In this document: piece by piece, positions 15,839 to 61,075 of the stretch
How the letters are laid out: the number at the start of each line of letters is the position of its first letter
Position numbering within the stretch: the stretch's first letter is position 1
Assembly (NCBI GenBank): GCA_964016885.1
Contig: OZ024742.1
Location: forward strand, 273,544,001 to 273,608,000
DNA: 64,000 bases
Source of the DNA: Eledone cirrhosa
Lineage: Eukaryota
Reading direction: 5' to 3'
Made by a program: the position numbers and the translations under genes
Notes under the pieces: generated by a model
What the model saw: only the letters and a program-made list of their open reading frames with translations
Told to the model about the DNA's origin: nothing
Databases searched by the model: none

Positions 15839-18800
15839 CTATAGGCGCATGGTCAGAGTAGGCCCATTCACACGAGCCATTCTCGCCACATTCACCCACC
15901 TTTTAGCAAATGTACTGGGAGCAGCACTTCTCTCTCCACCCTCACCCTCCTTTCCAGGTGAAACTTGAAGAAGTTGATGAGGGATTGGCCGAAGAGAAAA
16001 GTGTCTGTCTTTAGTCCTTTCAACCTGGTCCACCATATAATCTCTTTCGCAACTGCCACCAGACAGAGGAAAATGTCCTGCTCTTCCTGACCTAAGGAAA
16101 GTGCCGGCTCGATCTTCACTATGGACTCGGCCGATAACTGGATTCGTTCCACACGCGACAGTAGCTGTTCGACATAACTCCACAAGTCAGTAATGCACGG
16201 ACAATGGACAAGTGCGTGCAGAACGGTTTCGTCGTTCTGGCGTATATTGGGCAGGTCCGTCTGACAGCACTTCCGTGCCTGTAGAGTTTATCTCGAACCG
16301 GCAGTGCCCCTGGTAGCACTGCCAAGCGAGGGATTTCTGGAAATTGTCCATCGTCCCCGGCTCAAAAGTCCTCCGGTACAGACTGGTCAGTTCGACTTCG
16401 TCGAGGCCCAAAGCTTCTCCGAGTGCGTCATCGCACTTGCCCACCACTAATCCTCCATAGAACTCGAGAGTGGAAGTTCCACTGATCGCATTGCCCGCTT
16501 GGTAGAGGGCAGTGAGTGCCTGGCAACATTCCAGGTGCCAGTCACCCAGTCTCGGTCTCTTCTTGACCCAGGACTGCAGCTCAGTCAAAGAAATGAGCTG
16601 CGGAAAGGCCCGTCTGATAAACGGCGACCACACCTGTTCACCATTGAGGCAGAATATCTGGAGATGTCGCAGCCTCAACGCATGTCTGCGCATCATTAGC
16701 CACGGCATGCCCAGCCCTCCGCGTGGAGGGTGCTGGCAGCAGATGGACCGCCTCACCAACGGAACTTGTCCCCTCCACAAGAATTTGAAGAGGAGCCGTT
16801 CCAACTTGACGTGGCGCAGATGGGGGCAAGGCACGACGGTTAGGCGGTAATAGATGACGGACGCGATGTACGTATTCGCCACCTCCGCGCGACCTTTCAG
16901 TGATAGCTTCCTCCCAGCCCATATTTGGGTGAGACTGGCTACTCTGCTCGTTACCTCGTCCCAATTCTTTTCCACCTGGAGGTCTGGGCCGAACCAAACC
17001 CCAAGCAACTTTACTGGTCCGTCTGTCCAGCGCCCCACGACGCTGTTGGACGGCATGGGCTTGCCTCTCCAGGTTCCGAGCTGCAAACCCATCGACTTTT
17101 CCGGGTTAAGTTTGGCTCCTGTCAACCTTTCATATTCCTTCAATAAGGTGCCGACCACCTCGATTTCTGAGGTGTTCGACACCATCACGGTGATGTCGTC
17201 CGCATAAGCCGACACCGCCTTTCCACGTCCCGGTTCGAGCGGGATGCCCTGCAACAGCTCCAGCTTCCGCAGTAAAGGCTCGAGAGTCAATACGTACAGA
17301 AGGAAAGAGAGAGGGCACCCTTGACGGACCGATCGGGAGAGCCGAAATGGTTCCGAGAGGTGGCCATTAACTTTGACCACCGAGCGTGTGCCGCTGTGCA
17401 TTGCAACGATCCAGCTTCTAAAGATAGGGCCGAAGCCAGCTTCTTTGAGGACAAACTCCAGATACCGATGGTCGACCCTATCGAATGCTTTCGATTGATC
17501 TAAATTGATCAGTGCCCCACCGAAGCCAGGTTTACATCCTACCCTCTCTATGATGTATCGCATGAGGTGGAGATTGTCGTGTATGGACCTGGCTGGGATT
17601 GCGCAAGTTTGCGCCTCCCCAACCAAATCCTCGACGACAAGCGCCAATCTCTTTGCTAACACCTTGGCGAAAATCTTAAACTCTGTGTTGCGCAGAGTTA
17701 TGGGCCTGAAGTTGTCTAATGTATCCCTTTTGTTCTCGTCTTTCCTCATCAGCGTCCCCACTCCCCTGCTCACAGAACTGGGAATACTCCCTTTCTGCTG
17801 CCAGTTACAGTAGAGTGCTTCGAGGAGTTCGGAGAGCAAGTCTGGCATATTTACGTAAAGCTCGTAGGGCAGGCCATCCAAGCCGGGTGACTTGCGCCTC
17901 ATGCAGCCGACAAGGGCGTCCTGAATTTCGGCTGAAGTAATCGGCCTTTCGCAGCGCTCAGCGTCGACCGTCGAGATGCGCGGCAAGCCGTCAAGGTAGG
18001 GACTGAAATCCGCTACTCTCTCTGACCTGCCACTCTCCCCGAACAACCGAGCAAAGTGCTGGCGAAAGGCCTCACACATCCTCTTGGAATCGCTTATCTC
18101 GTGTCCGTTTCGGTCCGCCAAAGACCGAATTGTGGTTTTATTACCACGCTGCGCCTCCGCCACGCGGGCCCATCGAACAGCTTTAGTTCCCTCGTTTCTC
18201 AGCGCACGCGCCTTAGCTCTGACAATGCAACCTTCGTGTTTGGCATTGAAGAAATGGTCTAATGCCATTCTCGCCGCTTGCACGTCAGTTGCGATGCCAC
18301 TACAAATAGCCTCGTCTAACTTATCTAACAGCTCCCCCTCCTTTCTATTTTTCTCTAACGCTAGTTCTTTGCTGAACTCTATCGAAGTTACTCTAATCTC
18401 TCTTTTGAGAGCCCCCCACCATCTGTTTTTGATGATCCCCCCTGTCAACTTTTGCTTAACTAACTTATTGACTCGGTCCCTGTAAGCGTTACGTGCCGGA
18501 AATGACATGTTCAGCTTCCAGTAGCCCGCGCCTAACCTACGCGTTTTATTTAGGTCGACCGTACAGATCACACATTTGTGATCTGAATAGGCGACCGTTT
18601 TAAAAAGTGGACAGCCCACACTATTTCTATCTATTTTCCTAATGAAGATTCTGTCTATATACGATCTAGATGACCCCATTCGGTTGGTCCATGTCCAACT
18701 GGCACATTGGGGAAATATAGTCGATACCTGTCAGACAGTTGGAACTGGCTGAGTAGGTGCTTGAGGCTTTTGCACCCCCCGCTCCTATCGGCTACTCCCA

Positions 18801-37960: not shown

Positions 37961-38108
37961 CTTTCTCTTCCCCCTCCCTCGCTCTCTCTTTTCTCTCTCT
38001 CTCTCCCGCTGTCCCCCTCTCTTTCTGGAAGAAATCGGCTGTGTTCAGATTTAACAACAAATGAGCTCCACCAAGTTAAAAAATGCCAAAGTCATGCCGT
38101 ATAATCTC

Positions 38109-38447
38109 TCACTACTCGAAAACAATAGCGTAAGGTCTTCGAAATGCTTTTAATTAAGCATACAGTGTATTGCAAAATACACTATATATACATTCATATA
38201 TATATCGCTATTTCAGAGCACCAATTCTATAAGAAACAAACATTCATGATTTTCAGTAAACAGGTGGAGTACATGGCTTTGATAAGTACCAAAAAGTACT
38301 AAACAGAGCTATGTCAGCTTTATCTCCCCTGTTTGCTGAAAATTTAAAATAGGTGAGACTGTCACTACTCTAAAACAATAGTGTAAGGTCTTCGAAATGA
38401 TTTTAATTAAGCATACTGTGTATTGCAAAATGCACTATATATACATC

Positions 38448-38450
<3 letters not shown>
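38109..38450 (+). mobile_element. Diverged 253-bp-period relative of the 310-bp retrozyme-like unit (about 1.3 copies) with a decayed hammerhead at 38249-38343
   Basis: Shares 'aggtcttc.aaatg', 'catac-hairpin' and 'atatatatcgctatttcagagca' with the 310-bp unit. 'tcactactc' at 38109 and 38362. Runs into (TA)n. Confidence 0.7.
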
Positions 38451-38527
<77 letters not shown>

Positions 38528-39064: not shown

Positions 39065-39293
39065 CCATTTGGCAATGCAGTTCGTCTTTGTTGATTTATT
39101 ATTTTAAATCGACATGGACAAACTGTAATATTATAATTAGTATACTTCATTCTGGCTAAATTTTCTTTTACAATATAAATACAGATGTGTTGGTATTTGT
39201 GTTTCATCATATATATTAGTTTATACACGGCTCAGAAATATTTATTTATTTCTTCGAGCTAATTCCATTGTAAAAAAATTCATTACACTTAAT

Positions 39294-39504
<211 letters not shown>

Positions 39505-39708
39505 ATTATTAAGTGTATATATGTATATATGTATATATATATATATATATATAAGTTATCGCTATATGTAATCCAGTTAGAGGTTGTGAGTGTTCTGCGT
39601 CGTGGATAGTTTTAACGTACGGCTTTTTTTGCCTCAACAAGATGTTTCCATAGTTATGCAACGAGTTCGCGATAATTTTTATGCAGGTTATACCTGGAGT
39701 AATAATAA

Positions 39709-40050
39709 TTAGAGAATGACGATTAACATGGTTGGCTGTACAATAAGTGCTTTATTTAAAGTACTGACAATTGTTTCGTTGATCATGTGGGTCTAGAGTT
39801 CGCTAATCGCTTGATGTTGTGTTATTCGATCTCCAATTCATTATTCACCTATAGTCAACACATCACAGCATGTAGATAGCATGTATCCACATGCTCTGAT
39901 GTGTTGACCATAGATGAATAATGTATTAGAGATCGAATAAAGCAACATCAAGTGATTAGCGAACTGTGGACCCACATGATCAACGAAACAATTGTCAGTA
40001 CTTAAAATAAAGCCCTTATTGTACAGCCAACCAGGTTAGTCTTCATTCTT

Positions 40051-40053
<3 letters not shown>
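39709..40053. mobile_element. Fold-back element (arms about 39709-39878 and 39884-40053) with a hammerhead-like motif whose stem II is expanded
   Basis: Arms are reverse complements. On + at 39892-40000: ugcu-CUGAUGU-guuga...ucaac-GAAAC aauu GUC-agua. Confidence 0.6.
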
Positions 40054-40097
<44 letters not shown>

Positions 40098-40100
<3 letters not shown>

Positions 40101-41772
40101 AATAATGATGGCTGCCCGTTGCAATTGGTGGTGCATATGAAAAAGTGAGTCCTTCATCAGTGACCCTCCAACCGTCCCAGGCATTTCATCGCTTTAAGGG
40201 CCATATGCCTCAGGTTGGTGCGAACAACGGCTAAACAAAGTCGTTGGGACACGTAAATAAAGGGGACGTTAGGGTAACAAACAAAATGGTTTAAGCAACG
40301 GAAAGTGAGAAGAAATAGACAAGTCCCAGATCTCTATGAATATAAACTCGGTGAAATCGTGAACAAGAGACAAAAGACCATCAAACCTGGTTGAAATGTG
40401 AGAAAGGAAGGAATTTCGCACAAGTCTAACGGGGGGGAAGAAGAAGAAGAAGAAGAAGAAGAAGAAGAAGAAGAAGAAGAAGAAGAAGGGGTCTGGTCTA
40501 CGAATTCGGTAAACATAAGTTTTGAGAAGTCGCAGACGAAAGAGAGAGAGAAAAAAAATTCCATACCAGCTTGACCAGGACGCGCGAGAAAATAATTTCA
40601 CACAGGTCAAACTTGAAGGAGGAGGAGGAAAGAGGAGGAGGAGAGGTAGTGACAGAGAACGAGTGAGTGAAAGTTGAGGAGGAGGCTAACAGAGAGAGAG
40701 ACTGCTAGAAAGGGTAAAAGGTACAAAGAACGAGAAAGGGTAAAGGTACAAAGGACGAAACGGACGGATGGCAGCAGAAGAAAAATTATGTGTAAATATG
40801 ATAATAATGATGGCTGCCCGTTGCAAATGGTGGTGCATATAAAAAAGTGAGTCCTTCATCAGTGACCCTCCAACCGTCCCAGGCATTTCATCGCTTTAAG
40901 GGCCATATGCCTCAGGTTGGTGCGAACAACGGCTAAAAAAGTCGTTGGGACACGTAAATAAAGGGGACGTTAGGGTAACAAACAAAATGGTTTAAGCAAC
41001 GGAAAGTGAGAAGAAATAGACAAGTCCCAGATCTCTATGAATATAAACTCGGTGAAATTGTGAACAAGAGACAAAAGACCATCAAACCTGGTTGAAATGT
41101 GAGAAAGAAAGGAATTTCGCACAAGTCTAACGGGGGGGAAGAAGAAGAAGAAGAAGAAGAAGAAGAAGAAGAAGAAGAAGAAGAAGAAGAAGAAGAAGAA
41201 GAAGAAGAAGAAGAAGAAGGGGTCTGGTCTACGAATTCGGTAAACATAAGTTTTGTGAAGTCGCAGACGAAAGTGAGAGAGAAAAAAAATTCCATACCAG
41301 CTTGACCAGGACGCGCGAGAAAAGAATTTCACACAAGTCCAACTTGAAGGAGGAGGAGGAAAGAGGAGGAGGAGAGGTAGTGACAGAGAAAGAGTGAGTG
41401 AAAGTTGAGGAGGAGGCTAACAGAGAGAGAGACTGCTAGAAAGGGTAAAAGGTACAAAGAACGAGAAAGGGTAAAGGTACAAAGGACGAAACGGACGGAT
41501 GGCAGCAGAAGAAAAATTATGTGTAAATATGATAATAATGATGGCTGCCCGTTGCAAATGGTGGTGCATATGAAAAAGTGAGTCCTTCATCAGTGACCCT
41601 CCAACCGTCCCAGGCATTTCATCGCTTTAAGGGCCATATGCCTCAGGTTGGTGCGAACAACGGCTAAAAAAAGTCGTTGGGACAAGTAAATAAAGGGGAC
41701 GTTAGGGTAACAAACAAAATGGTTTAAGCAACGGAAAGTGAGAAGAAATAGACAAGTCCCAGATCTCTATGA

Positions 41773-41775
<3 letters not shown>
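40098..41775. repeat. Tandem repeat, about 2.3 units of 702-731 bp with an internal (GAA)n, between (TA)n tracts
   Basis: 'gataataatgatggctgcccg' at 40098, 40800 and 41531. The period difference is mostly (GAA)n length. Confidence 0.9.
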
Positions 41776-41851
<76 letters not shown>

Positions 41852-42158: not shown

Positions 42159-42228
<70 letters not shown>

Positions 42229-42235
<7 letters not shown>

Positions 42236-44792
42236 ACATACAGAATATTTTCGAATATTCTATGTCTATATTCACATATATATCGCTATTTCAGAGCATT
42301 TATTCCAATTTCTAATTTCTGCCGGACCGGCAACCGCTCTTTCAAACCAGTTCCTGTACACAGCTAAGTATTCTATAAGTCTCTAGCTGTGTCATTCTCG
42401 ATAAAAGCACTGGATATGTAGTCCTGATGATTTCTAACAAGAATGAAACGCGTAGATTACTTCCCTTGCTTTTATCGAGAATCTAATTGTAATACGTGAC
42501 GTATTCTATTCTATAGCGATTAGGTCTTCAAAATGTTTATTATAAACATACAGAATATTTTCGAATATTCTATGTCTATATTCACATATATATCGCTATT
42601 TCAGAGCATTTATTCCAATTTCTAATTTCTGCCGGACCGGCAACCGCTCTTTCAAACCAGTTCCTGTACACAGCTAAGTATTCTATAAGTCTCTAGCTGT
42701 GTCATTCTCGATAAAAGCACTGGATATGTAGTCCTGATGATTTCTAACAAGAATGAAACGCGTAGATTACTTCCCTTGCTTTTATCGAGAATCTAATTGT
42801 AATACGTGACGTATTCTATTCTATAGCGATTAGGTCTTCAAAATGTTTATTATAAACATACAGAATATTTTCGAATATTCTATGTCTATATTCACATATA
42901 TATCGCTATTTCAGAGCATTTATTCCAATTTCTAATTTCTGCCGGACCGGCAACCGCTCTTTCAAACCAGTTCCTGTACACAGCTAAGTATTCTATAAGT
43001 CTCTAGCTGTGTCATTCTCGATAAAAGCACTGGATATGTAGTCCTGATGATTTCTAACAAGAATGAAACGCGTAGATTACTTCCCTTGCTTTTATCGAGA
43101 ATCTAATTGTAATACGTGACGTATTCTATTCTATAGCGATTAGGTCTTCAAAATGTTTATTATAAACATACAGAATATTTTCGAATATTCTATGTCTATA
43201 TTCACATATATATCGCTATTTCAGAGCATTTATTCCAATTTCTAATTTCTGCCGGACCGGCAACCGCTCTTTCAAACCAGTTCCTGTACACAGCTAAGTA
43301 TTCTATAAGTCTCTAGCTGTGTCATTCTCGATAAAAGCACTGGATATGTAGTCCTGATGATTTCTAACAAGAATGAAACGCGTAGATTACTTCCCTTGCT
43401 TTTATCGAGAATCTAATTGTAATACGTGACGTATTCTATTCTATAGCGATTAGGTCTTCAAAATGTTTATTATAAACATACAGAATATTTTCGAATATTC
43501 TATGTCTATATTCACATATATATCGCTATTTCAGAGCATTTATTCCAATTTCTAATTTCTGCCGGACCGGCAACCGCTCTTTCAAACCAGTTCCTGTACA
43601 CAGCTAAGTATTCTATAAGTCTCTAGCTGTGTCATTCTCGATAAAAGCACTGGATATGTAGACCTGATGATTTCTAACAAGAATGAAACGCGTAGATTAC
43701 TTCCCTTGCTTTTATCGAGAATCTAATTGTAATACGTGACGTATTCTATTCTATAGCGATTAGGTCTTCAAAATGTTTATTATAAACATACAGAATATTT
43801 TCGAATATTCTATGTCTATATTCACATATATATCGCTATTTCAGAGCATTTATTCCAATTTCTAATTTCTGCCGGACCGGCAACCGCTCTTTCAAACCAG
43901 TTCCTGTACACAGCTAAGTATTCTATAAGTCTCTAGCTGTGTCATTCTCGATAAAAGCACTGGATATGTAGTCCTGATGATTTCTAACAAGAATGAAACG
44001 CGTAGATTACTTCCCTTGCTTTTATCGAGAATCTAATTGTAATACGTGACGTATTCTATTCTATAGCGATTAGGTCTTCAAAATGTTTATTATAAACATA
44101 CAGAATATTTTCGAATATTCTATGTCTATATTCACATATATATCGCTATTTCAGAGCATTTATTCCAATTTCTAATTTCTGCCGGACCGGCAACCGCTCT
44201 TTCAAACCAGTTCCTGTACACAGCTAAGTATTCTATAAGTCTCTAGCTGTGTCATTCTCGATAAAAGCACTGGATATGTAGTCCTGATGATTTCTAACAA
44301 GAATGAAACGCGTAGATTACTTCCCTTGCTTTTATCGAGAATCTAATTGTAATACGTGACGTATTCTATTCTATAGCGATTAGGTCTTCAAAATGTTTAT
44401 TATAAACATACAGAATATTTTCGAATATTCTATGTCTATATTCACATATATATCGCTATTTCAGAGCATTTATTCCAATTTCTAATTTCTGCCGGACCGG
44501 CAACCGCTCTTTCAAACCAGTTCCTGTACACAGCTAAGTATTCTATAAGTCTCTAGCTGTGTCATTCTCGATAAAAGCACTGGATATGTAGTCCTGATGA
44601 TTTCTAACAAGAATGAAACGCGTAGATTACTTCCCTTGCTTTTATCGAGAATCTAATTGTAATACGTGACGTATTCTATTCTATAGCGATTAGGTCTTCA
44701 AAATGTTTATTATAAACATACAGAATATTTTCGAATATTCTATGTCTATATTCACATATATATCGCTATTTCAGAGCATTTATTCCAATTTC
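42229..44792 (+). repeat. 310-bp hammerhead-containing tandem array A (about 8.3 units, 8 ribozymes)
   Basis: 'tataaacatacagaatatt' at 42231, 42541 ... 44711. Only one variant seen (43662). (TA)n on both sides. Confidence 0.97.
42394..42482 (+). ncRNA. Type I hammerhead ribozyme (first of 35 copies; core 42418-42460; predicted cleavage after A42454)
   Basis: guaguc-CUGAUGA-u uucu[aaca]agaa u-GAAA-CGCG-UA-gauuac. Stem I continues past an internal loop as a perfect 16-bp helix (attctcgataaaagca/tgcttttatcgagaat). Stem III is the palindrome ACGCGU. Confidence 0.88.
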
Positions 44793-44800
44793 ATATTATA

Positions 44801-44853
<53 letters not shown>

Positions 44854-44922
44854 GTATATATATATTATATATATATTATATATATATATATATATTATGT
44901 ATATATATATTATATATATATT

Positions 44923-45028
<106 letters not shown>

Positions 45029-45039
45029 AATATATATAT

Positions 45040-46651
45040 CAAGATTGGGCCACTCTTCCATACAAACGGTTCATTAACCGAGAATACCCATAGATGAATT
45101 GGCTAGCAGTATAGTACTCAGGGAGCTGAAGGGGGCACAATATGCCCTATACACAAAGGATGTAGCAGAGTGGAGACCAAAAACTATAGGCCAGTCTCCC
45201 TGATTCGCATATCAGTAAGATCATGGAGCGAGTTGTCAGAAAGAAACTGATCATTTTCCTCGAGGAAAATGACCGGCTGTCTAGCACGCAGCATGGCCTC
45301 CGCCCAGGAAGAAACTGCCTTACACAACTTCTACATCACTACGACTGGGTACTGAAACAACTGCTAGACAGTTCACTTGTGGACGTGATATATATTGACT
45401 TTGCGAAGGCCTATGACAAGGTCGACGACGGAATGATATGTCACAAACTACACGGACTCGGCATAACTGGAAAAGTAGGTGAGTGGTTGCATGACTTCTT
45501 AAAGGACAGAAGCCAGACAGTCGCAGCAAACGGGGCCCTCTCAAAGGAAACATCAATAACAAGTGGAGTGCCCAAAGCGACAATCCTGGGACCACTAGTG
45601 TTTTTAGTGGCTCCCTCAGACATGCCCTCTGTAGTACATACAACGACATCCTTCACATAGCTATGCTGATCACACTAAGGTAGCACAGACAATCAAAAAC
45701 CCGGCTGACGCTGCCCTTTTACAAGATCTGGATGCCATATACAAATGGACGGACGAAAACAACATGCAGTTTAATGCTGGTAAATTCAAAGCCCTACAAT
45801 ACAAACCTGCAAACACAAATACAGTACAGCACAGCTACGCAAGAGCAGGAGGGACCGATATCCTCATGCCAAAATCTATACGAGACCTGGGCATAGACAT
45901 GAGCGATGATGCAGCTTTTTCCTCACACATCATGAAAGTGGCGACAATGTGCAGACGACTCGCTGGCTGGATCTTGCGGACTTTCCGGACAAGAGACGGT
46001 GACAACATGTTGACACTATGGAGGACATTTTTCCTAAGCCGCCTGGACTATTGCTCCCAATTGTGGTCACCCCATAATGTCAAACTAACCACAGTGGTTG
46101 AGGCAATCCAACGAAGCTACACCAAGAGGATTGCCACGATGAAGGAGATAAGCTACTGGGAGAGGCTAAAAGAACTGAACCTCTACTCATTGGAACGAAG
46201 AGAGGAGGGATACTCAGTGATCTACATGTGGAAAGTCTTGGGGGAACTAGCACCAAACTTTGGCATTGGGAGCTGGACCAACAGTCGAACAGGAAGTCAC
46301 TGTGTGGTGCCAAAAGTCCCGTCTTCCCCATCTAGAATAAGGAGCATATATTGCAATATCGTGGGTTTTAAGGGCGCTCAACTCTTCAACAAGCTGCCGA
46401 GGGATCTGAGTGATCTGTATGGTGTGGAGGTGGATGCCTTCAAGAAACATCTCGTCACCTTGCTATCCAGGATCCCGGATGAGCCTACAGCAAGGGACGG
46501 GGGAATCCTAAGGGCAGCAGCAACAAACTCCCTCTTACACCAGTGGCCAACCAATACAGGCTGGAGATAAAATGTGTAGCAACAAGGGCGGTGCCCCAGC
46601 ATGGCCTCTGCCGGATGGCTGGGACGGGTAAAAGGGTAAAAGAGTAAAAAA

Positions 46652-46652
<1 letters not shown>
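45040..46652 (+). mobile_element. 5'-truncated CR1/L2-group LINE (RT and C-terminal region), decayed
   Basis: QHGLRPGRNCLTQL, YIDFAKAYDKVD, SGVPKATILGPL, degenerate YADHTK, RDLG, RLDYCSQLWSP, SYWERLKELNLYSLERR. Short gggtaaaa-type 3' tail. Embedded in (TA)n. Confidence 0.9.
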
Positions 46653-46692
<40 letters not shown>

Positions 46693-46700
<8 letters not shown>

Positions 46701-47105
46701 TAGAATATTCGAAAATATTCTGTATGTTTATAATAAACATTTTGAAGACCTAATCGCTATAGAATAGAATACGTCACGTATTACAATTAGATTCTCGATA
46801 AAAGCAAGGGAAGCAATCTACGCGTTTCATTCTTGTTAGAAATCATCAGGACTACATATCCAGTGCTTTTATCGAGAATGACACAGCTAGAGACTTATAG
46901 AATACTTAGCTGTGTACAGGAACTGGTTTGAAAGAGCGGTTGCCGGTCCGGCAGAAATTAGAAATTGGAATAAATGCTCTGAAATAGCGATATATATGTG
47001 AATATAGACATAGAATATTCGAAAATATTCTGTATGTTTATAATAAACATTTTGAAGACCTAATCGCTATAGAATAGAATACGTCACGTATTACAATTAG
47101 ATTCT
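46693..47105 (-). repeat. Inverted block of the 310-bp unit (about 1.3 units, ribozyme at 46813-46855), 'gattgc' variant
   Basis: Reverse complement of the unit, joined head-to-head to array B at 47105/47106. Confidence 0.95.
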
Positions 47106-50100
47106 TCGAATATTCTATGTCTATATTCACATATATATCGCTATTTCAGAGCATTTATTCCAATTTCTAATTTCTGCCGGACCGGCAACCGCTCTTTCAA
47201 ACCAGTTCCTGTACACAGCTAAGTATTCTATAAGTCTCTAGCTGTGTCATTCTCGATAAAAGCACTGGATATGTAGTCCTGATGATTTCTAACAAGAATG
47301 AAACGCGTAGATTGCTTCCCTTGCTTTTATCGAGAATCTAATTGTAATACGTGACGTATTCTATTCTATAGCGATTAGGTCTTCAAAATGTTTATTATAA
47401 ACATACAGAATATTTTCGAATATTCTATGTCTATATTCACATATATATCGCTATTTCAGAGCATTTATTCCAATTTCTAATTTCTGCCGGACCGGCAACC
47501 GCTCTTTCAAACCAGTTCCTGTACACAGCTAAGTATTCTATAAGTCTCTAGCTGTGTCATTCTCGATAAAAGCACTGGATATGTAGTCCTGATGATTTCT
47601 AACAAGAATGAAACGCGTAGATTGCTTCCCTTGCTTTTATCGAGAATCTAATTGTAATACGTGACGTATTCTATTCTATAGCGATTAGGTCTTCAAAATG
47701 TTTATTATAAACATACAGAATATTTTCGAATATTCTATGTCTATATTCACATATATATCGCTATTTCAGAGCATTTATTCCAATTTCTAATTTCTGCCGG
47801 ACCGGCAACCGCTCTTTCAAACCAGTTCCTGTACACAGCTAAGTATTCTATAAGTCTCTAGCTGTGTCATTCTCGATAAAAGCACTGGATATGTAGTCCT
47901 GATGATTTCTAACAAGAATGAAACGCGTAGATTGCTTCCCTTGCTTTTATCGAGAATCTAATTGTAATACGTGACGTATTCTATTCTATAGCGATTAGGT
48001 CTTCAAAATGTTTATTATAAACATACAGAATATTTTCGAATATTCTATGTCTATATTCACATATATATCGCTATTTCAGAGCATTTATTCCAATTTCTAA
48101 TTTCTGCCGGACCGGCAACCGCTCTTTCAAACCAGTTCCTGTACACAGCTAAGTATTCTATAAGTCTCTAGCTGTGTCATTCTCGATAAAAGCACTGGAT
48201 ATGTAGTCCTGATGATTTCTAACAAGAATGAAACGCGTAGATTGCTTCCCTTGCTTTTATCGAGAATCTAATTGTAATACGTGACGTATTCTATTCTATA
48301 GCGATTAGGTCTTCAAAATGTTTATTATAAACATACAGAATATTTTCGAATATTCTATGTCTATATTCACATATATATCGCTATTTCAGAGCATTTATTC
48401 CAATTTCTAATTTCTGCCGGACCGGCAACCGCTCTTTCAAACCAGTTCCTGTACACAGCTAAGTATTCTATAAGTCTCTAGCTGTGTCATTCTCGATAAA
48501 AGCACTGGATATGTAGTCCTGATGATTTCTAACAAGAATGAAACGCGTAGATTGCTTCCCTTGCTTTTATCGAGAATCTAATTGTAATACGTGACGTATT
48601 CTATTCTATAGCGATTAGGTCTTCAAAATGTTTATTATAAACATACAGAATATTTTCGAATATTCTATGTCTATATTCACATATATATCGCTATTTCAGA
48701 GCATTTATTCCAATTTCTAATTTCTGCCGGACCGGCAACCGCTCTTTCAAACCAGTTCCTGTACACAGCTAAGTATTCTATAAGTCTCTAGCTGTGTCAT
48801 TCTCGATAAAAGCACTGGATATGTAGTCCTGATGATTTCTAACAAGAATGAAACGCGTAGATTGCTTCCCTTGCTTTTATCGAGAATCTAATTGTAATAC
48901 GTGACGTATTCTATTCTATAGCGATTAGGTCTTCAAAATGTTTATTATAAACATACAGAATATTTTCGAATATTCTATGTCTATATTCACATATATATCG
49001 CTATTTCAGAGCATTTATTCCAATTTCTAATTTCTGCCGGACCGGCAACCGCTCTTTCAAACCAGTTCCTGTACACAGCTAAGTATTCTATAAGTCTCTA
49101 GCTGTGTCATTCTCGATAAAAGCACTGGATATGTAGTCCTGATGATTTCTAACAAGAATGAAACGCGTAGATTGCTTCCCTTGCTTTTATCGAGAATCTA
49201 ATTGTAATACGTGACGTATTCTATTCTATAGCGATTAGGTCTTCAAAATGTTTATTATAAACATACAGAATATTTTCGAATATTCTATGTCTATATTCAC
49301 ATATATATCGCTATTTCAGAGCATTTATTCCAATTTCTAATTTCTGCCGGACCGGCAACCGCTCTTTCAAACCAGTTCCTGTACACAGCTAAGTATTCTA
49401 TAAGTCTCTAGCTGTGTCATTCTCGATAAAAGCACTGGATATGTAGTCCTGATGATTTCTAACAAGAATGAAACGCGTAGATTGCTTCCCTTGCTTTTAT
49501 CGAGAATCTAATTGTAATACGTGACGTATTCTATTCTATAGCGATTAGGTCTTCAAAATGTTTATTATAAACATACAGAATATTTTCGAATATTCTATGT
49601 CTATATTCACATATATATCGCTATTTCAGAGCATTTATTCCAATTTCTAATTTCTGCCGGACCGGCAACCGCTCTTTCAAACCAGTTCCTGTACACAGCT
49701 AAGTATTCTATAAGTCTCTAGCTGTGTCATTCTCGATAAAAGCACTGGATATGTAGTCCTGATGATTTCTAACAAGAATGAAACGCGTAGATTGCTTCCC
49801 TTGCTTTTATCGAGAATCTAATTGTAATACGTGACGTATTCTATTCTATAGCGATTAGGTCTTCAAAATGTTTATTATAAACATACAGAATATTTTCGAA
49901 TATTCTATGTCTATATTCACATATATATCGCTATTTCAGAGCATTTATTCCAATTTCTAATTTCTGCCGGACCGGCAACCGCTCTTTCAAACCAGTTCCT
50001 GTACACAGCTAAGTATTCTATAAGTCTCTAGCTGTGTCATTCTCGATAAAAGCACTGGATATGTAGTCCTGATGATTTCTAACAAGAATGAAACGCGTAG

Positions 50101-50575
50101 ATTGCTTCCCTTGCTTTTATCGAGAATCTAATTGTAATACGTGACGTATTCTATTCTATAGCGATTAGGTCTTCAAAATGTTTATTATAAACATACAGAA
50201 TATTTTCGAATATTCTATGTCTATATTCACATATATATCGCTATTTCAGAGCATTTATTCCAATTTCTAATTTCTGCCGGACCGGCAACCGCTCTTTCAA
50301 ACCAGTTCCTGTACACAGCTAAGTATTCTATAAGTCTCTAGCTGTGTCATTCTCGATAAAAGCACTGGATATGTAGTCCTGATGATTTCTAACAAGAATG
50401 AAACGCGTAGATTGCTTCCCTTGCTTTTATCGAGAATCTAATTGTAATACGTGACGTATTCTATTCTATAGCGATTAGGTCTTCAAAATGTTTATTATAA
50501 ACATACAGAATATTTTCGAATATTCTATGTCTATATTCACATATATATCGCTATTTCAGAGCATTTATTCCAATT

Positions 50576-50578
<3 letters not shown>
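47106..50578 (+). repeat. 310-bp hammerhead array B (about 11.2 units, 11 ribozymes), all 'gattgc' variant
   Basis: 'atgtagtcctgatga' every 310 bp from 47271 to 50371. Confidence 0.97.
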
Positions 50579-50619
<41 letters not shown>

Positions 50620-50620
50620 A

Positions 50621-50707
<87 letters not shown>

Positions 50708-50711
<4 letters not shown>

Positions 50712-53700
50712 TATAGACATAGAATATTCGAAAATATTCTGTATGTTTATAATAAACATTTTGAAGACCTAATCGCTATAGAATAGAATACGTCACGTAT
50801 TACAATTAGATTCTCGATAAAAGCAAGGGAAGTAATCTACGCGTTTCATTCTTGTTAGAAATCATCAGGACTACATATCCAGTGCTTTTATCGAGAATGA
50901 CACAGCTAGAGACTTATAGAATACTTAGCTGTGTACAGGAACTGGTTTGAAAGAGCGGTTGCCGGTCCGGCAGAAATTAGAAATTGGAATAAATGCTCTG
51001 AAATAGCGATATATATGTGAATATAGACATAGAATATTCGAAAATATTCTGTATGTTTATAATAAACATTTTGAAGACCTAATCGCTATAGAATAGAATA
51101 CGTCACGTATTACAATTAGATTCTCGATAAAAGCAAGGGAAGTAATCTACGCGTTTCATTCTTGTTAGAAATCATCAGGACTACATATCCAGTGCTTTTA
51201 TCGAGAATGACACAGCTAGAGACTTATAGAATACTTAGCTGTGTACAGGAACTGGTTTGAAAGAGCGGTTGCCGGTCCGGCAGAAATTAGAAATTGGAAT
51301 AAATGCTCTGAAATAGCGATATATATGTGAATATAGACATAGAATATTCGAAAATATTCTGTATGTTTATAATAAACATTTTGAAGACCTAATCGCTATA
51401 GAATAGAATACGTCACGTATTACAATTAGATTCTCGATAAAAGCAAGGGAAGTAATCTACGCGTTTTATTCTTGTTAGAAATCATCAGGACTACATATCC
51501 AGTGCTTTTATCGAGAATGACACAGCTAGAGACTTATAGAATACTTAGCTGTGTACAGGAACTGGTTTGAAAGAGCGGTTGCCGGTCCGGCAGAAATTAG
51601 AAATTGGAATAAATGCTCTGAAATAGCGATATATATGTGAATATAGACATAGAATATTCGAAAATATTCTGTATGTTTATAATAAACATTTTGAAGACCT
51701 AATCGCTATAGAATAGAATACGTCACGTATTACAATTAGATTCTCGATAAAAGCAAGGGAAGTAATCTACGCGTTTCATTCTTGTTAGAAATCATCAGGA
51801 CTACATATCCAGTGCTTTTATCGAGAATGACACAGCTAGAGACTGATAGAATACTTAGCTGTGTACAGGAACTGGTTTGAAAGAGCGGTTGCCGGTCCGG
51901 CAGAAATTAGGAATTGGAATAAATGCTCTGAAATAGCGATATATATGTGAATATAGACATAGAATATTCGAAAATATTCTGTATGTTTATAATAAACATT
52001 TTGAAGACCTAATCGCTATAGAATAGAATACGTCACGTATTACAATTAGATTCTCGATAAAAGCAAGGGAAGTAATCTACGCGTTTCATTCTTGTTAGAA
52101 ATCATCAGGACTACATATCCAGTGCTTTTATCGAGAATGACACAGCTAGAGACTTATAGAATACTTAGCTGTGTACAGGAACTGGTTTGAAAGAGCGGTT
52201 GCCGGTCCGGCAGAAATTAGAAATTGGAATAAATGCTCTGAAATAGCGATATATATGTGAATATAGACATAGAATATTCGAAAATATTCTGTATGTTTAT
52301 AATAAACATTTTGAAGACCTAATCGCTATAGAATAGAATACGTCACGTATTACAATTAGATTCTCGATAAAAGCAAGGGAAGTAATCTACGCGTTTCATT
52401 CTTGTTAGAAATCATCAGGACTACATATCCAGTGCTTTTATCGAGAATGACACAGCTAGAGACTTATAGAATACTTAGCTGTGTACAGGAACTGGTTTGA
52501 AAGAGCGGTTGCCGGTCCGGCAGAAATTAGAAATTGGAATAAATGCTCTGAAATAGCGATATATATGTGAATATAGACATAGAATATTCGAAAATATTCT
52601 GTATGTTTATAATAAACATTTTGAAGACCTAATCGCTATAGAATAGAATACGTCACGTATTACAATTAGATTCTCGATAAAAGCAAGGGAAGTAATCTAC
52701 GCGTTTCATTCTTGTTAGAAATCATCAGGACTACATATCCAGTGCTTTTATCGAGAATGACACAGCTAGAGACTTATAGAATACTTAGCTGTGTACAGGA
52801 ACTGGTTTGAAAGAGCGGTTGCCGGTCCGGCAGAAATTAGAAATTGGAATAAATGCTTTGAAACAGCGATATATATGTGAATATAGACATAGAATATTCG
52901 AAAATATTCTGTATGTTTATAATAAACATTTTGAAGACCTAATCGCTATAGAATAGAATACGTCACGTATTACAATTAGATTCTCGATAAAAGCAAGGGA
53001 AGTAATCTACGCGTTTCATTCTTGTTAGAAATCATCAGGACTACATATCCAGTGCTTTTATCGAGAATGACACAGCTAGAGACTTATAGAATACTTAGCT
53101 GTGTACAGGAACTGGTTTGAAAGAGCGGTTGCCGGTCCGGCAGAAATTAGAAATTGGAATAAATGCTCTGAAATAGCGATATATATGTGAATATAGACAT
53201 AGAATATTCGAAAATATTCTGTATGTTTATAATAAACATTTTGAAGACCTAATCGCTATAGAATAGAATACGTCACGTATTACAATTAGATTCTCGATAA
53301 AAGCAAGGGAAGTAATCTACGCGTTTCATTCTTGTTAGAAATCATCAGGACTACATATCCAGTGCTTTTATCGAGAATGACACAGCTAGAGACTTATAGA
53401 ATACTTAGCTGTGTACAGGAACTGGTTTGAAAGAGCGGTTGCCGGTCCGGCAGAAATTAGAAATTGGAATAAATGCTTTGAAACAGCGATATATATGTGA
53501 ATATAGACATAGAATATTCGAAAATATTCTGTATGTTTATAATAAACATTTTGAAGACCTAATCGCTATAGAATAGAATACGTCACGTATTACAATTAGA
53601 TTCTCGATAAAAGCAAGGGAAGTAATCTACGCGTTTCATTCTTGTTAGAAATCATCAGGACTACATATCCAGTGCTTTTATCGAGAATGACACAGCTAGA

Positions 53701-54099
53701 GACTTATAGAATACTTAGCTGTGTACAGGAACTGGTTTGAAAGAGCGGTTGCCGGTCCGGCAGAAATTAGAAATTGGAATAAATGCTCTGAAATAGCGAT
53801 ATATATGTGAATATAGACATAGAATATTCGAAAATATTCTGTATGTTTATAATAAACATTTTGAAGACCTAATCGCTATAGAATAGAATACGTCACGTAT
53901 TACAATTAGATTCTCGATAAAAGCAAGGGAAGTAATCTACGCGTTTCATTCTTGTTAGAAATCATCAGGACTACATATCCAGTGCTTTTATCGAGAATGA
54001 CACAGCTAGAGACTTATAGAATACTTAGCTGTGTACAGGAACTGGTTTGAAAGAGCGGTTGCCGGTCCGGCAGAAATTAGAAATTGGAATAAATGCTCT
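50708..54099 (-). repeat. 310-bp hammerhead array C (about 10.9 units, 11 ribozymes), 'gattac' variant
   Basis: 'agtaatctacgcgtt' every 310 bp from 50831 to 53931. Point variants at 51467, 51845, 51911, 52858/52864 and 53478/53484. Confidence 0.97.
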
Positions 54100-55381
54100 A
54101 TATTCACATATATATCGCTATTTCAGAGCATTTATTCCAATTTCTAATTTCTGCCGGACCGGCAACCGCTCTTTCAAACCAGTTCCTGTACACAGCTAAG
54201 TATTCTATAAGTCTCTAGCTGTGTCATTCTCGATAAAAGCACTGGATATGTAGTCCTGATGATTTCTAACAAGAATGAAACGCGTAGATTACTTCCCTTG
54301 CTTTTATCGAGAATCTAATTGTAATACGTGACGTATTCTATTCTATAGCGATTAGGTCTTCAAAATGTTTATTATAAACATACAGAATATTTTCGAATAT
54401 TCTATGTCTATATTCACATATATATCGCTATTTCAGAGCATTTATTCCAATTTCTAATTTCTGCCGGACCGGCAACCGCTCTTTCAAACCAGTTCCTGTA
54501 CACAGCTAAGTATTCTATAAGTCTCTAGCTGTGTCATTCTCGATAAAAGCACTGGATATGTAGTCCTGATGATTTCTAACAAGAATGAAACGCGTAGATT
54601 ACTTCCCTTGCTTTTATCGAGAATCTAATTGTAATACGTGACGTATTCTATTCTATAGCGATTAGGTCTTCAAAATGTTTATTATAAACATACAGAATAT
54701 TTTCGAATATTCTATGTCTATATTCACATATATATCGCTATTTCAGAGCATTTATTCCAATTTCTAATTTCTGCCGGACCGGCAACCGCTCTTTCAAACC
54801 AGTTCCTGTACACAGCTAAGTATTCTATAAGTCTCTAGCTGTGTCATTCTCGATAAAAGCACTGGATATGTAGTCCTGATGATTTCTAACAAGAATGAAA
54901 CGCGTAGATTACTTCCCTTGCTTTTATCGAGAATCTAATTGTAATACGTGACGTATTCTATTCTATAGCGATTAGGTCTTCAAAATGTTTATTATAAACA
55001 TACAGAATATTTTCGAATATTCTATGTCTATATTCACATATATATCGCTATTTCAGAGCATTTATTCCAATTTCTAATTTCTGCCGGACCGGCAACCGCT
55101 CTTTCAAACCAGTTCCTGTACACAGCTAAGTATTCTATAAGTCTCTAGCTGTGTCATTCTCGATAAAAGCACTGGATATGTAGTCCTGATGATTTCTAAC
55201 AAGAATGAAACGCGTAGATTACTTCCCTTGCTTTTATCGAGAATCTAATTGTAATACGTGACGTATTCTATTCTATAGCGATTAGGTCTTCAAAATGTTT
55301 ATTATAAACATACAGAATATTTTCGAATATTCTATGTCTATATTCACATATATATCGCTATTTCAGAGCATTTATTCCAAT
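54097..55381 (+). repeat. 310-bp hammerhead array D (about 4.1 units, 4 ribozymes), head-to-head with array C
   Basis: 'tagtcctgatga' at 54251, 54561, 54871 and 55181. The junction shares 'tct' microhomology at 54097-54099. Confidence 0.97.
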
Positions 55382-55400
55382 ATATATATATATATGTATG

Positions 55401-55496
<96 letters not shown>

Positions 55497-57295: not shown

Positions 57296-61075
<3,780 letters not shown>

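Follow-up and report, generated by a model that had tools for sequence, protein, structure and literature searches.

Two fixed 3' ends, one of each per insertion, in head-to-head arrays of a hammerhead-bearing repeat of Eledone cirrhosa

Introduction

How does a tandem array of a short non-coding repeat come to lie head to head with a second array of the same repeat, with both outer ends running into (TA)n? The question is raised by a stretch of 64,000 nucleotides of the Eledone cirrhosa genome (assembly GCA_964016885.1, contig OZ024742.1, positions 273,544,001 to 273,608,000; hereafter the window, numbered from its first base), which holds three insertions (A, B and C/D) of a 310-bp repeat with a predicted hammerhead ribozyme in each unit. 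We find that the sense 3' ends of this repeat fall at two sites, labelled S (short) and L (long) in the present analysis, 122–139 nt and 163–174 nt past the predicted ribozyme cut. Two-armed insertions nearly always have one end of each kind, and their two arms nearly always carry one haplotype. Double priming of the type used by Penelope-like elements (PLEs) is, in some form, very likely to be the cause.

Repeats of this kind are known as retrozymes. Circular RNA templates yielding tandem complementary DNA (cDNA) have been proposed for them (Cervera and de la Pena 2020, PMC7229834), while Li et al. (2026, bioRxiv 10.64898/2026.07.22.740005) favour local amplification and unequal crossing-over for tandem retrozyme arrays, and the choice between RNA-circle copying and later crossing-over is an open question. 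The origin of inverted, tailed PLE insertions is also called unresolved (PMC8557442, PMC11167929). The present family has well over a thousand young insertions where the predictions of circle copying and crossing-over differ, an unusually clean record that makes both questions testable.

Results

Unit positions (u) start at the base that follows the predicted hammerhead cut (for example, window 47309|47310). The period is 310 bp, units match one another at 99–100%, G+C is 106/310 (34%), and a mid-unit 19-mer has 16,092 exact matches in the assembly. The parts of a minimal type I hammerhead are present in each unit, namely stem I, a CTGATGA core, stem II, GAAA, and a palindromic loop 3 (ACGCGT), from which cleavage would be expected to be assisted by dimer formation. 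One copy lies at 47273–47315 on the plus strand, with a cut after 47309 predicted from the sequence and a motif scan. Rfam at the gathering score gave no match in the window (HH9 reached 15.6 bits against a gathering score of 52). No reading frame of at least 120 aa lies inside the arrays, and frames that touch the array ends extend into TA repeats. The unit strand folds more stably than shuffled sequence (z = −4.2). By its sequence, the unit qualifies as a non-LTR (long terminal repeat) retrozyme as described in PMC7229834, the hammerhead being predicted; among the public runs listed with unit words, none was an RNA run.

Insertion B consists of an S arm on the minus strand (46692–47105, with its outer boundary at 46692/3; 1.3 units, 3' end at u126–127, 5' end at u24) and an L arm on the plus strand (47105–50578; 11.2 units, 5' end at u106, 3' end at u169), which overlap at the junction by 1 nt, ‘T’. 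Insertion C/D has the same plan, with an S arm on the minus strand (C, 50708–54099; 11 units, 3' end at u130, 5' end at u149), an L arm on the plus strand (D, 54097–55381; 4.1 units, 5' end at u121, 3' end at u165), and a 3-nt overlap, ‘TCT’. Array A is a single plus-strand arm (42228–44792; 8.3 units, L end at u168) whose 5' end (u84) abuts (TA)n directly; a short partner arm, if existing, would be of zero length or not separable from TA. The 3' ends of all window arms continue into (TA)n: 44793–45039 for A, 46653–46696 for the short end of B, 50580–50708 for both the long end of B and the short end of C, and 55380–55496 for the long end of C/D. Retrozyme target-site duplications, where present, exceed 4 bp; since both flanks of the insertions here are (TA)n, one cannot be delimited. 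A and B are separated by a 5'-truncated fragment of a long interspersed nuclear element (LINE) on the plus strand (45040–46652, with an RVT_1 match), which lies outside the element.

The short ends fall in a TA-like stretch of the unit (u123–139; for example 50532–50548, plus strand). Beyond it runs a ‘tail’ of 35–42 nt (50540–50578, plus strand, in B) that is confined to the long-end arm and is defined here after PMC8557442 and PMC11167929. The long end lies 42 nt past the short end in B and 35 nt past it in C/D. The original prediction, made from the letters alone, had given these composite, arm and end coordinates, and all of them hold: the plus arrays A, B and D stop within 4 nt of each other about 165–170 nt past the cut, the minus blocks stop about 35–45 nt earlier, and the C/D junction has its ‘tct’ microhomology. 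The same prediction had placed all sense 3' ends in one short window; the fixed ends joining (TA)n stand, and the one window becomes two sites, S and L, paired one each. The variant A5>G is present in all 12 B units that cover the site (11/11 in the L arm, and the S arm as well) and in none of A, C or D, so B and C/D, whose haplotypes differ, are separate insertion events. Each of the two junctions occurs once in the 3.0-Gb assembly.

The pairing extends well beyond the window. The exact long-end+(TA)6 pattern has 713 forward matches and the short-end pattern 720, with 0 for the reversed controls. Among 144 arm ends, most of them from loci chosen by an end pattern, 134 lie inside the S or L site (modes u130 and u165) and 132 run into TA-rich DNA, as do 5.7% of background window positions. 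The non-random ends and flanks anticipated by the original prediction are thus a property of the sampled genomic arrays too. The genome tallies draw on a sample of 125 insertions, which is a small fraction of the family; L146 and L186–L190 were inspected apart from them, and L031 (cut by the edge of its region) and arms below 60 bp or 90% identity were dropped before counting. Of the 125, 109 are two-armed and 16 single-armed. The two-armed class comprises 104 S+L, 2 S+S, 0 L+L and 3 unclassified insertions, and the single-armed L056 and L196 have a partner of just 12–30 nt.

Three further counts give the same picture. From coordinates alone, all 36 of 36 outward-facing end pairs across 1–111 Mb of contig C1 are one L plus one S; 27 of the 99 ends there were unpaired by pattern, and on inspection most belong to composites whose partner lies off the exact pattern. 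An end-blind sample of 17 loci yielded 13 S+L composites, 1 composite with an atypical end, 2 single arms and 1 locus at an assembly gap, with TA-repeat flanks in 12 of the 13 S+L composites and AT-rich flanks in the other, L150. In 40 regions sampled later, S+L accounts for 37/41 called insertions and L+L for none. Orientation is free (36 S-left and 25 L-left among 61 composites), which rejects a strand rule for the two ends; that both short ends in the window are on the minus strand is a coincidence. End subtype does not depend on haplotype either (P = 0.45 and 0.93). Ends are thus not inherited with the haplotype and are chosen anew at each insertion.

An older sister family, 69–79% identical to the unit, is found at window 38040–38460 and at two other loci (L126:332–705 and L150:7630–8216). 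It is conserved over u59–212 and also ends in (TA)n at the equivalent S and L sites. The conserved block may be the protein-binding site.

We compared haplotypes between arms in composites with more than 2 units in both. One haplotype was shared by both arms in 37/41 composites (18 haplotypes in these 41) and in 26/28 of a second sample, 63/69 over the two, against a 15.5% match between different loci. Variant counts leave aside 16 nt at 3' ends and 6–10 nt at 5' ends. They also omit any cluster of at least 3 single changes within 20 nt, which reflects junction misalignment. A>G changes make up 18/44 distinct array-wide variants and 9/119 single-unit variants (Fisher P = 2e-6), as well as 10/24 of the array-wide variants private to one locus, meaning private among the 125 sampled insertions (P = 1e-4). 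The ratio of A>G to C>T is 18:4 array-wide and 9:22 in single units (P = 2e-4). DNA mutation filtered by structure is not enough to explain this excess, because C>T, which should be just as tolerable to RNA structure, lags. Individual loci can be extreme: all 11 extra changes of L042 over its backbone are A>G, and in L038 all units of both arms share 4 A>G changes. Four of the changes (5G, 20G, 259G and 276G) recur, each on several backbones. A G is rarer 5' of A>G sites (1/25 vs 14/67, P = 0.06) and commoner 3' of them (8/25 vs 7/67, P = 0.02), and the neighbour preference stated for ADAR in PMC4365171 is for G to be rare 5' and common 3' of the site. We infer that the template RNA underwent A-to-I editing. 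That the edits are fixed in all units rather than scattered suggests many rounds of copying from one monomer.

A different template is conceivable under the same double priming, namely a read-through transcript of a parent array, long and uncleaved, that is copied linearly. The switch within locus L204, weighed in the Discussion, suits such a multimer. Under linear copying, edits and parental mutations should turn up as single-unit changes common to both arms or to other loci, whereas 2/79 are common to both arms and 4/71 recur anywhere. Single-unit A>G changes are not enriched (9, with 21 for T>C), a linear transcript has no easy source of new variants fixed in all units, and neither S arms (P = 0.6) nor L arms (P = 0.02) show a sharp run-off site in their 5' phases. 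We regard linear copying as unlikely.

Arms are commonly long. At least 2 units are present in 171/232 arms, the median is 3.6 units, and S and L arms neither differ in length (P = 0.44) nor correlate (rho = 0.08). Among 143 arms of at least 3 units, a variant that only part of the units share occurs in 11 and is missing from 132, and arm length is unrelated to the load of single-unit variants (rho = −0.02, n = 90). Because subset variants are rare and length is unrelated to variant load, arms appear to be born long. These are also the data that bear on a two-step origin, in which a PLE inserts short arms of about 1 unit each that then expand locally by unequal crossing-over, the process favoured in bioRxiv 10.64898/2026.07.22.740005. 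A one-unit seed would likewise fix an edit in all units, and subset variants do occur in the longest arms (an arm of about 48 units, L104, L055, L032 and arm C of the window). The same origin must accommodate the 132/143 arms free of subset variants and the flat variant load, needs both arms to expand independently ahead of nearly any mutation, and leaves arms longer than 1 unit still requiring a template that spans the ribozyme site. We judge it clearly improbable. The original prediction held that unequal crossing-over alone is insufficient; this is right in that crossing-over cannot build the architecture, yet it acts later in some long arms.

The 5' ends are scattered over the unit, and 4/218 lie near the ribozyme cut where 7 are expected. 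This bears out the prediction that ends do not coincide with the cut and rejects the cut as what sets them. An L1-like block of one arm at the other arm's priming site is also rejected, as phases are spread. Junctions are specific to the locus and rich in microhomology: 28/47 have an overlap of at least 2 nt, against 18% expected (P = 4e-10), with 19/66 junctions scored as inserts and left out of this test, some of which are artefacts of nearby variants. The insert at the L034 junction is a copy of that locus's own flank, a pattern resembling polymerase-theta end joining. Separately, the inversion junction of L057 holds a 272-bp unrelated insert (L057:4461–4735) without a match among the loci retrieved.

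If the inversion arose by self-priming fold-back or by template switching of the reverse transcriptase (RT), as has been suggested for palindromic Penelope junctions (PMC3846280), junctions should be hairpin-like. The 16-bp inverted repeat inside the unit is indeed used at a few of them (L095, L150). Near-palindromic junctions are not in excess, however (6/61 within 10 nt, P = 0.23; 9/61 within 20 nt, P = 0.42), phase differences between arms are uniform (P = 0.86), and a second arm made by fold-back would get no fixed end of its own. Palindromic fold-back is thereby rejected, and an origin of the inversions by this route in general is very improbable; the template switching that had been offered as one option is not needed when each arm has its own fixed 3' end at the target.

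That the junctions are artefacts of assembly or of long-read fold-back seems to us barely credible. The two window junctions are known from the assembly alone. Junctions differ between loci and are not palindromic, and an artefact cannot yield the pairing of S with L or haplotype-matched arms of unequal phase. In addition, contigs from an independent run (X2) show opposite-strand unit joints at many phases, together with TA-joined loose ends at S and L. The runs compared with the window come from other organisms or individuals: in three of them (X12, X2 and X3) the LINE copies are several percent off the window LINE and no piece spans the B stretch, and a further run, X21, gave 0 reads.

We turned to PLEs for the machinery. 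Their signature has been given as an inverted 5'-truncated copy, a tail of 30–40 bp at one end, and a microsatellite bias (PMC8557442). Here the inverted, 5'-truncated neighbour is present in the 109/125 two-armed insertions, the one-sided tail in the distance between the modes u130 and u165 with 104/109 insertions S+L, and the AT-rich or microsatellite target in 132/144 ends against the 5.7% background. A PLE protein assayed in vitro cleaves and extends each of the two strands; its synthesis begins at a pair of adjacent sites inside the RNA, and these define the tail (PMC11167929). An open reading frame (ORF) with RT and GIY-YIG domains is not found in the unit and is present elsewhere in the genome. 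The element behaves as a PLE passenger and is not classed as an autonomous PLE, and from the anatomy of its insertions we infer a Penelope-type driver.

The genome has 10,596 GIY-YIG candidates, 150 of which were scored. ORFs with RT and GIY-YIG domains have, upstream of the nuclease, the CxxxxCxxC motif that PMC8557442 gives for Neptune and Nematis. Autonomous PLE families have two end classes past a hammerhead-like motif, for example 74–76 and 141–143 nt in one family, and the two head-to-head pairs of Neptune-like ORFs observed, L131 and L141, each have one short and one long end. Another tandem hammerhead family, of about 490 bp, is found at L136:8063–9600, with a matching ribozyme core and compensatory changes in stem II.

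Several other features of the window were noted. Two unrelated inverted-repeat pairs lie in or beside (TA)n at 39700–40060 and 39280–39520 (arm identity 89% and 93%) and are probably other PLE-type passengers of the same tracts. A tandem repeat of about 700–730 bp at 40085–41777 has an internal (GAA)n and (TA)n on its flanks. Several non-LTR retrotransposon copies, degraded and in minus-strand orientation, cluster at positions 1–21200; they have endonuclease-like and RT-like frames, the longest of which (847 aa) is at 16187–18730. The frame at 57647–58270 has what we take to be a resemblance to Helitron Rep/helicase proteins. Words of the unit at 47310–47929 are present at 0.70–0.87 in 20 public runs, which come from 16 studies and carry codes for 17 organisms. 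X12 and X3 depart from the window at 1–2 positions in the unit and by about 7–9% in the LINE. Horizontal transfer is not inferred from this, as raw reads of the X12-coded organism gave no match; the presence of the unit may reflect recent transfer, diet or mixed samples, which are not separable here.

Discussion

We lean, with some confidence, towards an origin in which both (TA)n ends are primed on one RNA monomer, probably a circle, that is copied repeatedly by a trans-acting PLE reverse transcriptase/endonuclease before the cDNA ends are joined. In such a process, arrays would be transcribed, self-cleave and circularise, with some monomers A-to-I edited. A Neptune-type protein would nick both strands of (TA)n. 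One end would prime at S, the TA-like stretch 122–139 nt past the cut, where base pairing probably helps, and its counterpart would prime at L, 35–45 nt beyond S. Each reverse transcriptase might travel a variable distance (0 to more than 20 units) with no halt at the ribozyme site. Microhomology-mediated repair would then join the two cDNA 3' ends, in some cases adding templated inserts, and some long arms would later turn over like satellites. The most detailed version, to which we give even chances, is bidirectional rolling-circle reverse transcription: a PLE dimer would use a single ADAR-edited circular ribozyme RNA with two obligatory sites and leave the edits in every unit of both arms. 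The original prediction had proposed target-primed reverse transcription at (TA)n from both target strands on a circular or multimeric RNA. The fixed ends, the S and L pairing, the haplotype shared by the arms and the lack of a pile-up at the cut all agree with it.

Several observations weigh against copying from a single circular monomer, or against parts of it. In L204, the two outermost units of both arms have 284A/294T and units closer to the junction have 287A, an in-register switch that suits a linear multimer and is not predicted by a monomer circle. A second copy of this junction able to act as a repair donor was sought in the assembly, none was found, and that explanation was rejected. 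L064 and L067 show haplotype changes inside one arm. Uncleaved RNA was the dominant substrate in the PLE assay of PMC11167929, which suits a linear template equally. As for editing, the A>G signal was first noticed in the first sample, ‘private’ variants are private to a sample, and among variants new in the later 40 regions A>G makes up 2/7, plus earlier A>G sites recurring on new backbones. Arm lengths deviate from exponential (P = 0.04). Arm C of the window has a pair of linked variants, 144G and 150A, shared by 2 units, and an arm of about 48 units (L189, L190; G000:C1:97461510–97476087) has interspersed 81A+84A in 8 units and 113G in 5. This last arm is an insertion on its way to a satellite, and local turnover can lengthen and homogenise arms. 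Finally, a blastn comparison of the unit with 70 GIY-YIG loci from the 150 scored revealed no autonomous element that shares DNA with it; the only matches there were to other non-coding families.

The element class and the insertion signature have each been published already, and this is not a new class of element. In the open-access literature searched we did not find a retrozyme combined with the PLE signature, a near-obligate S+L rule, one template per insertion, an editing footprint, or locus-specific, microhomology-rich, non-palindromic junctions. The A-to-I edits offer a natural barcode for counting template molecules per insertion. If the edited-circle account is true, A-to-I editing would be a main source of heritable variation in a satellite-like family.

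Comparison with known systems

L1 twin priming is another case of two primed ends. Both target ends reportedly prime cDNA there, giving an inverted 5' part and a direct 3' part joined with microhomology, and the insertions described here are alike in these respects. In L1 the first strand is primed at poly(A), the second, internal primer is variable, and inversion is a minority outcome. The retrozyme, in contrast, has no poly(A) and a fixed second priming site, its arms cover the same sequence many times, and inversion is the rule (104/125). With both ends fixed, L1-type twin priming does not describe it.

Animal non-LTR retrozymes resemble the present family in sequence organisation. They too are non-coding tandem repeats of 150–450 bp with a type I hammerhead per unit, low GC and thousands of copies, in genomes that also contain PLEs (PMC7229834; bioRxiv 10.64898/2026.07.22.740005). 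Two-armed inverted insertions, paired fixed ends, (TA)n targets and editing footprints are not described in the available text of these two sources, and the words ‘inverted’ and ‘microsatellite’ each occur 0 times in that of PMC7229834. Chlamys elements such as MRC1 are also non-autonomous PLEs with multicopy head-to-tail insertions, but they are without canonical hammerheads, and their 3' end usually resembles an autonomous family (PMC8557442).

In mode of insertion the resemblance is to endonuclease-bearing (EN+) PLEs, including Penelope/Poseidon, Neptune and Naiad. These share the inverted truncated copy, the 30–40 bp tail, the (TA)n/microsatellite bias, a hammerhead in the terminal repeat, two internal starts of reverse transcription, and an in vitro activity that cuts and extends both strands (PMC8557442, PMC3846280, PMC11167929). 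Unlike them, the retrozyme has no ORF, both of its arms are multi-unit (median 3.6), and its junctions are not palindromic. The anatomy of its insertions ties a retrozyme to PLE machinery beyond co-occurrence in one genome. It also sharpens the PLE pattern itself: the tail described as optional in PLEs becomes, in this retrozyme, a near-obligate pairing of one short end with one long end.

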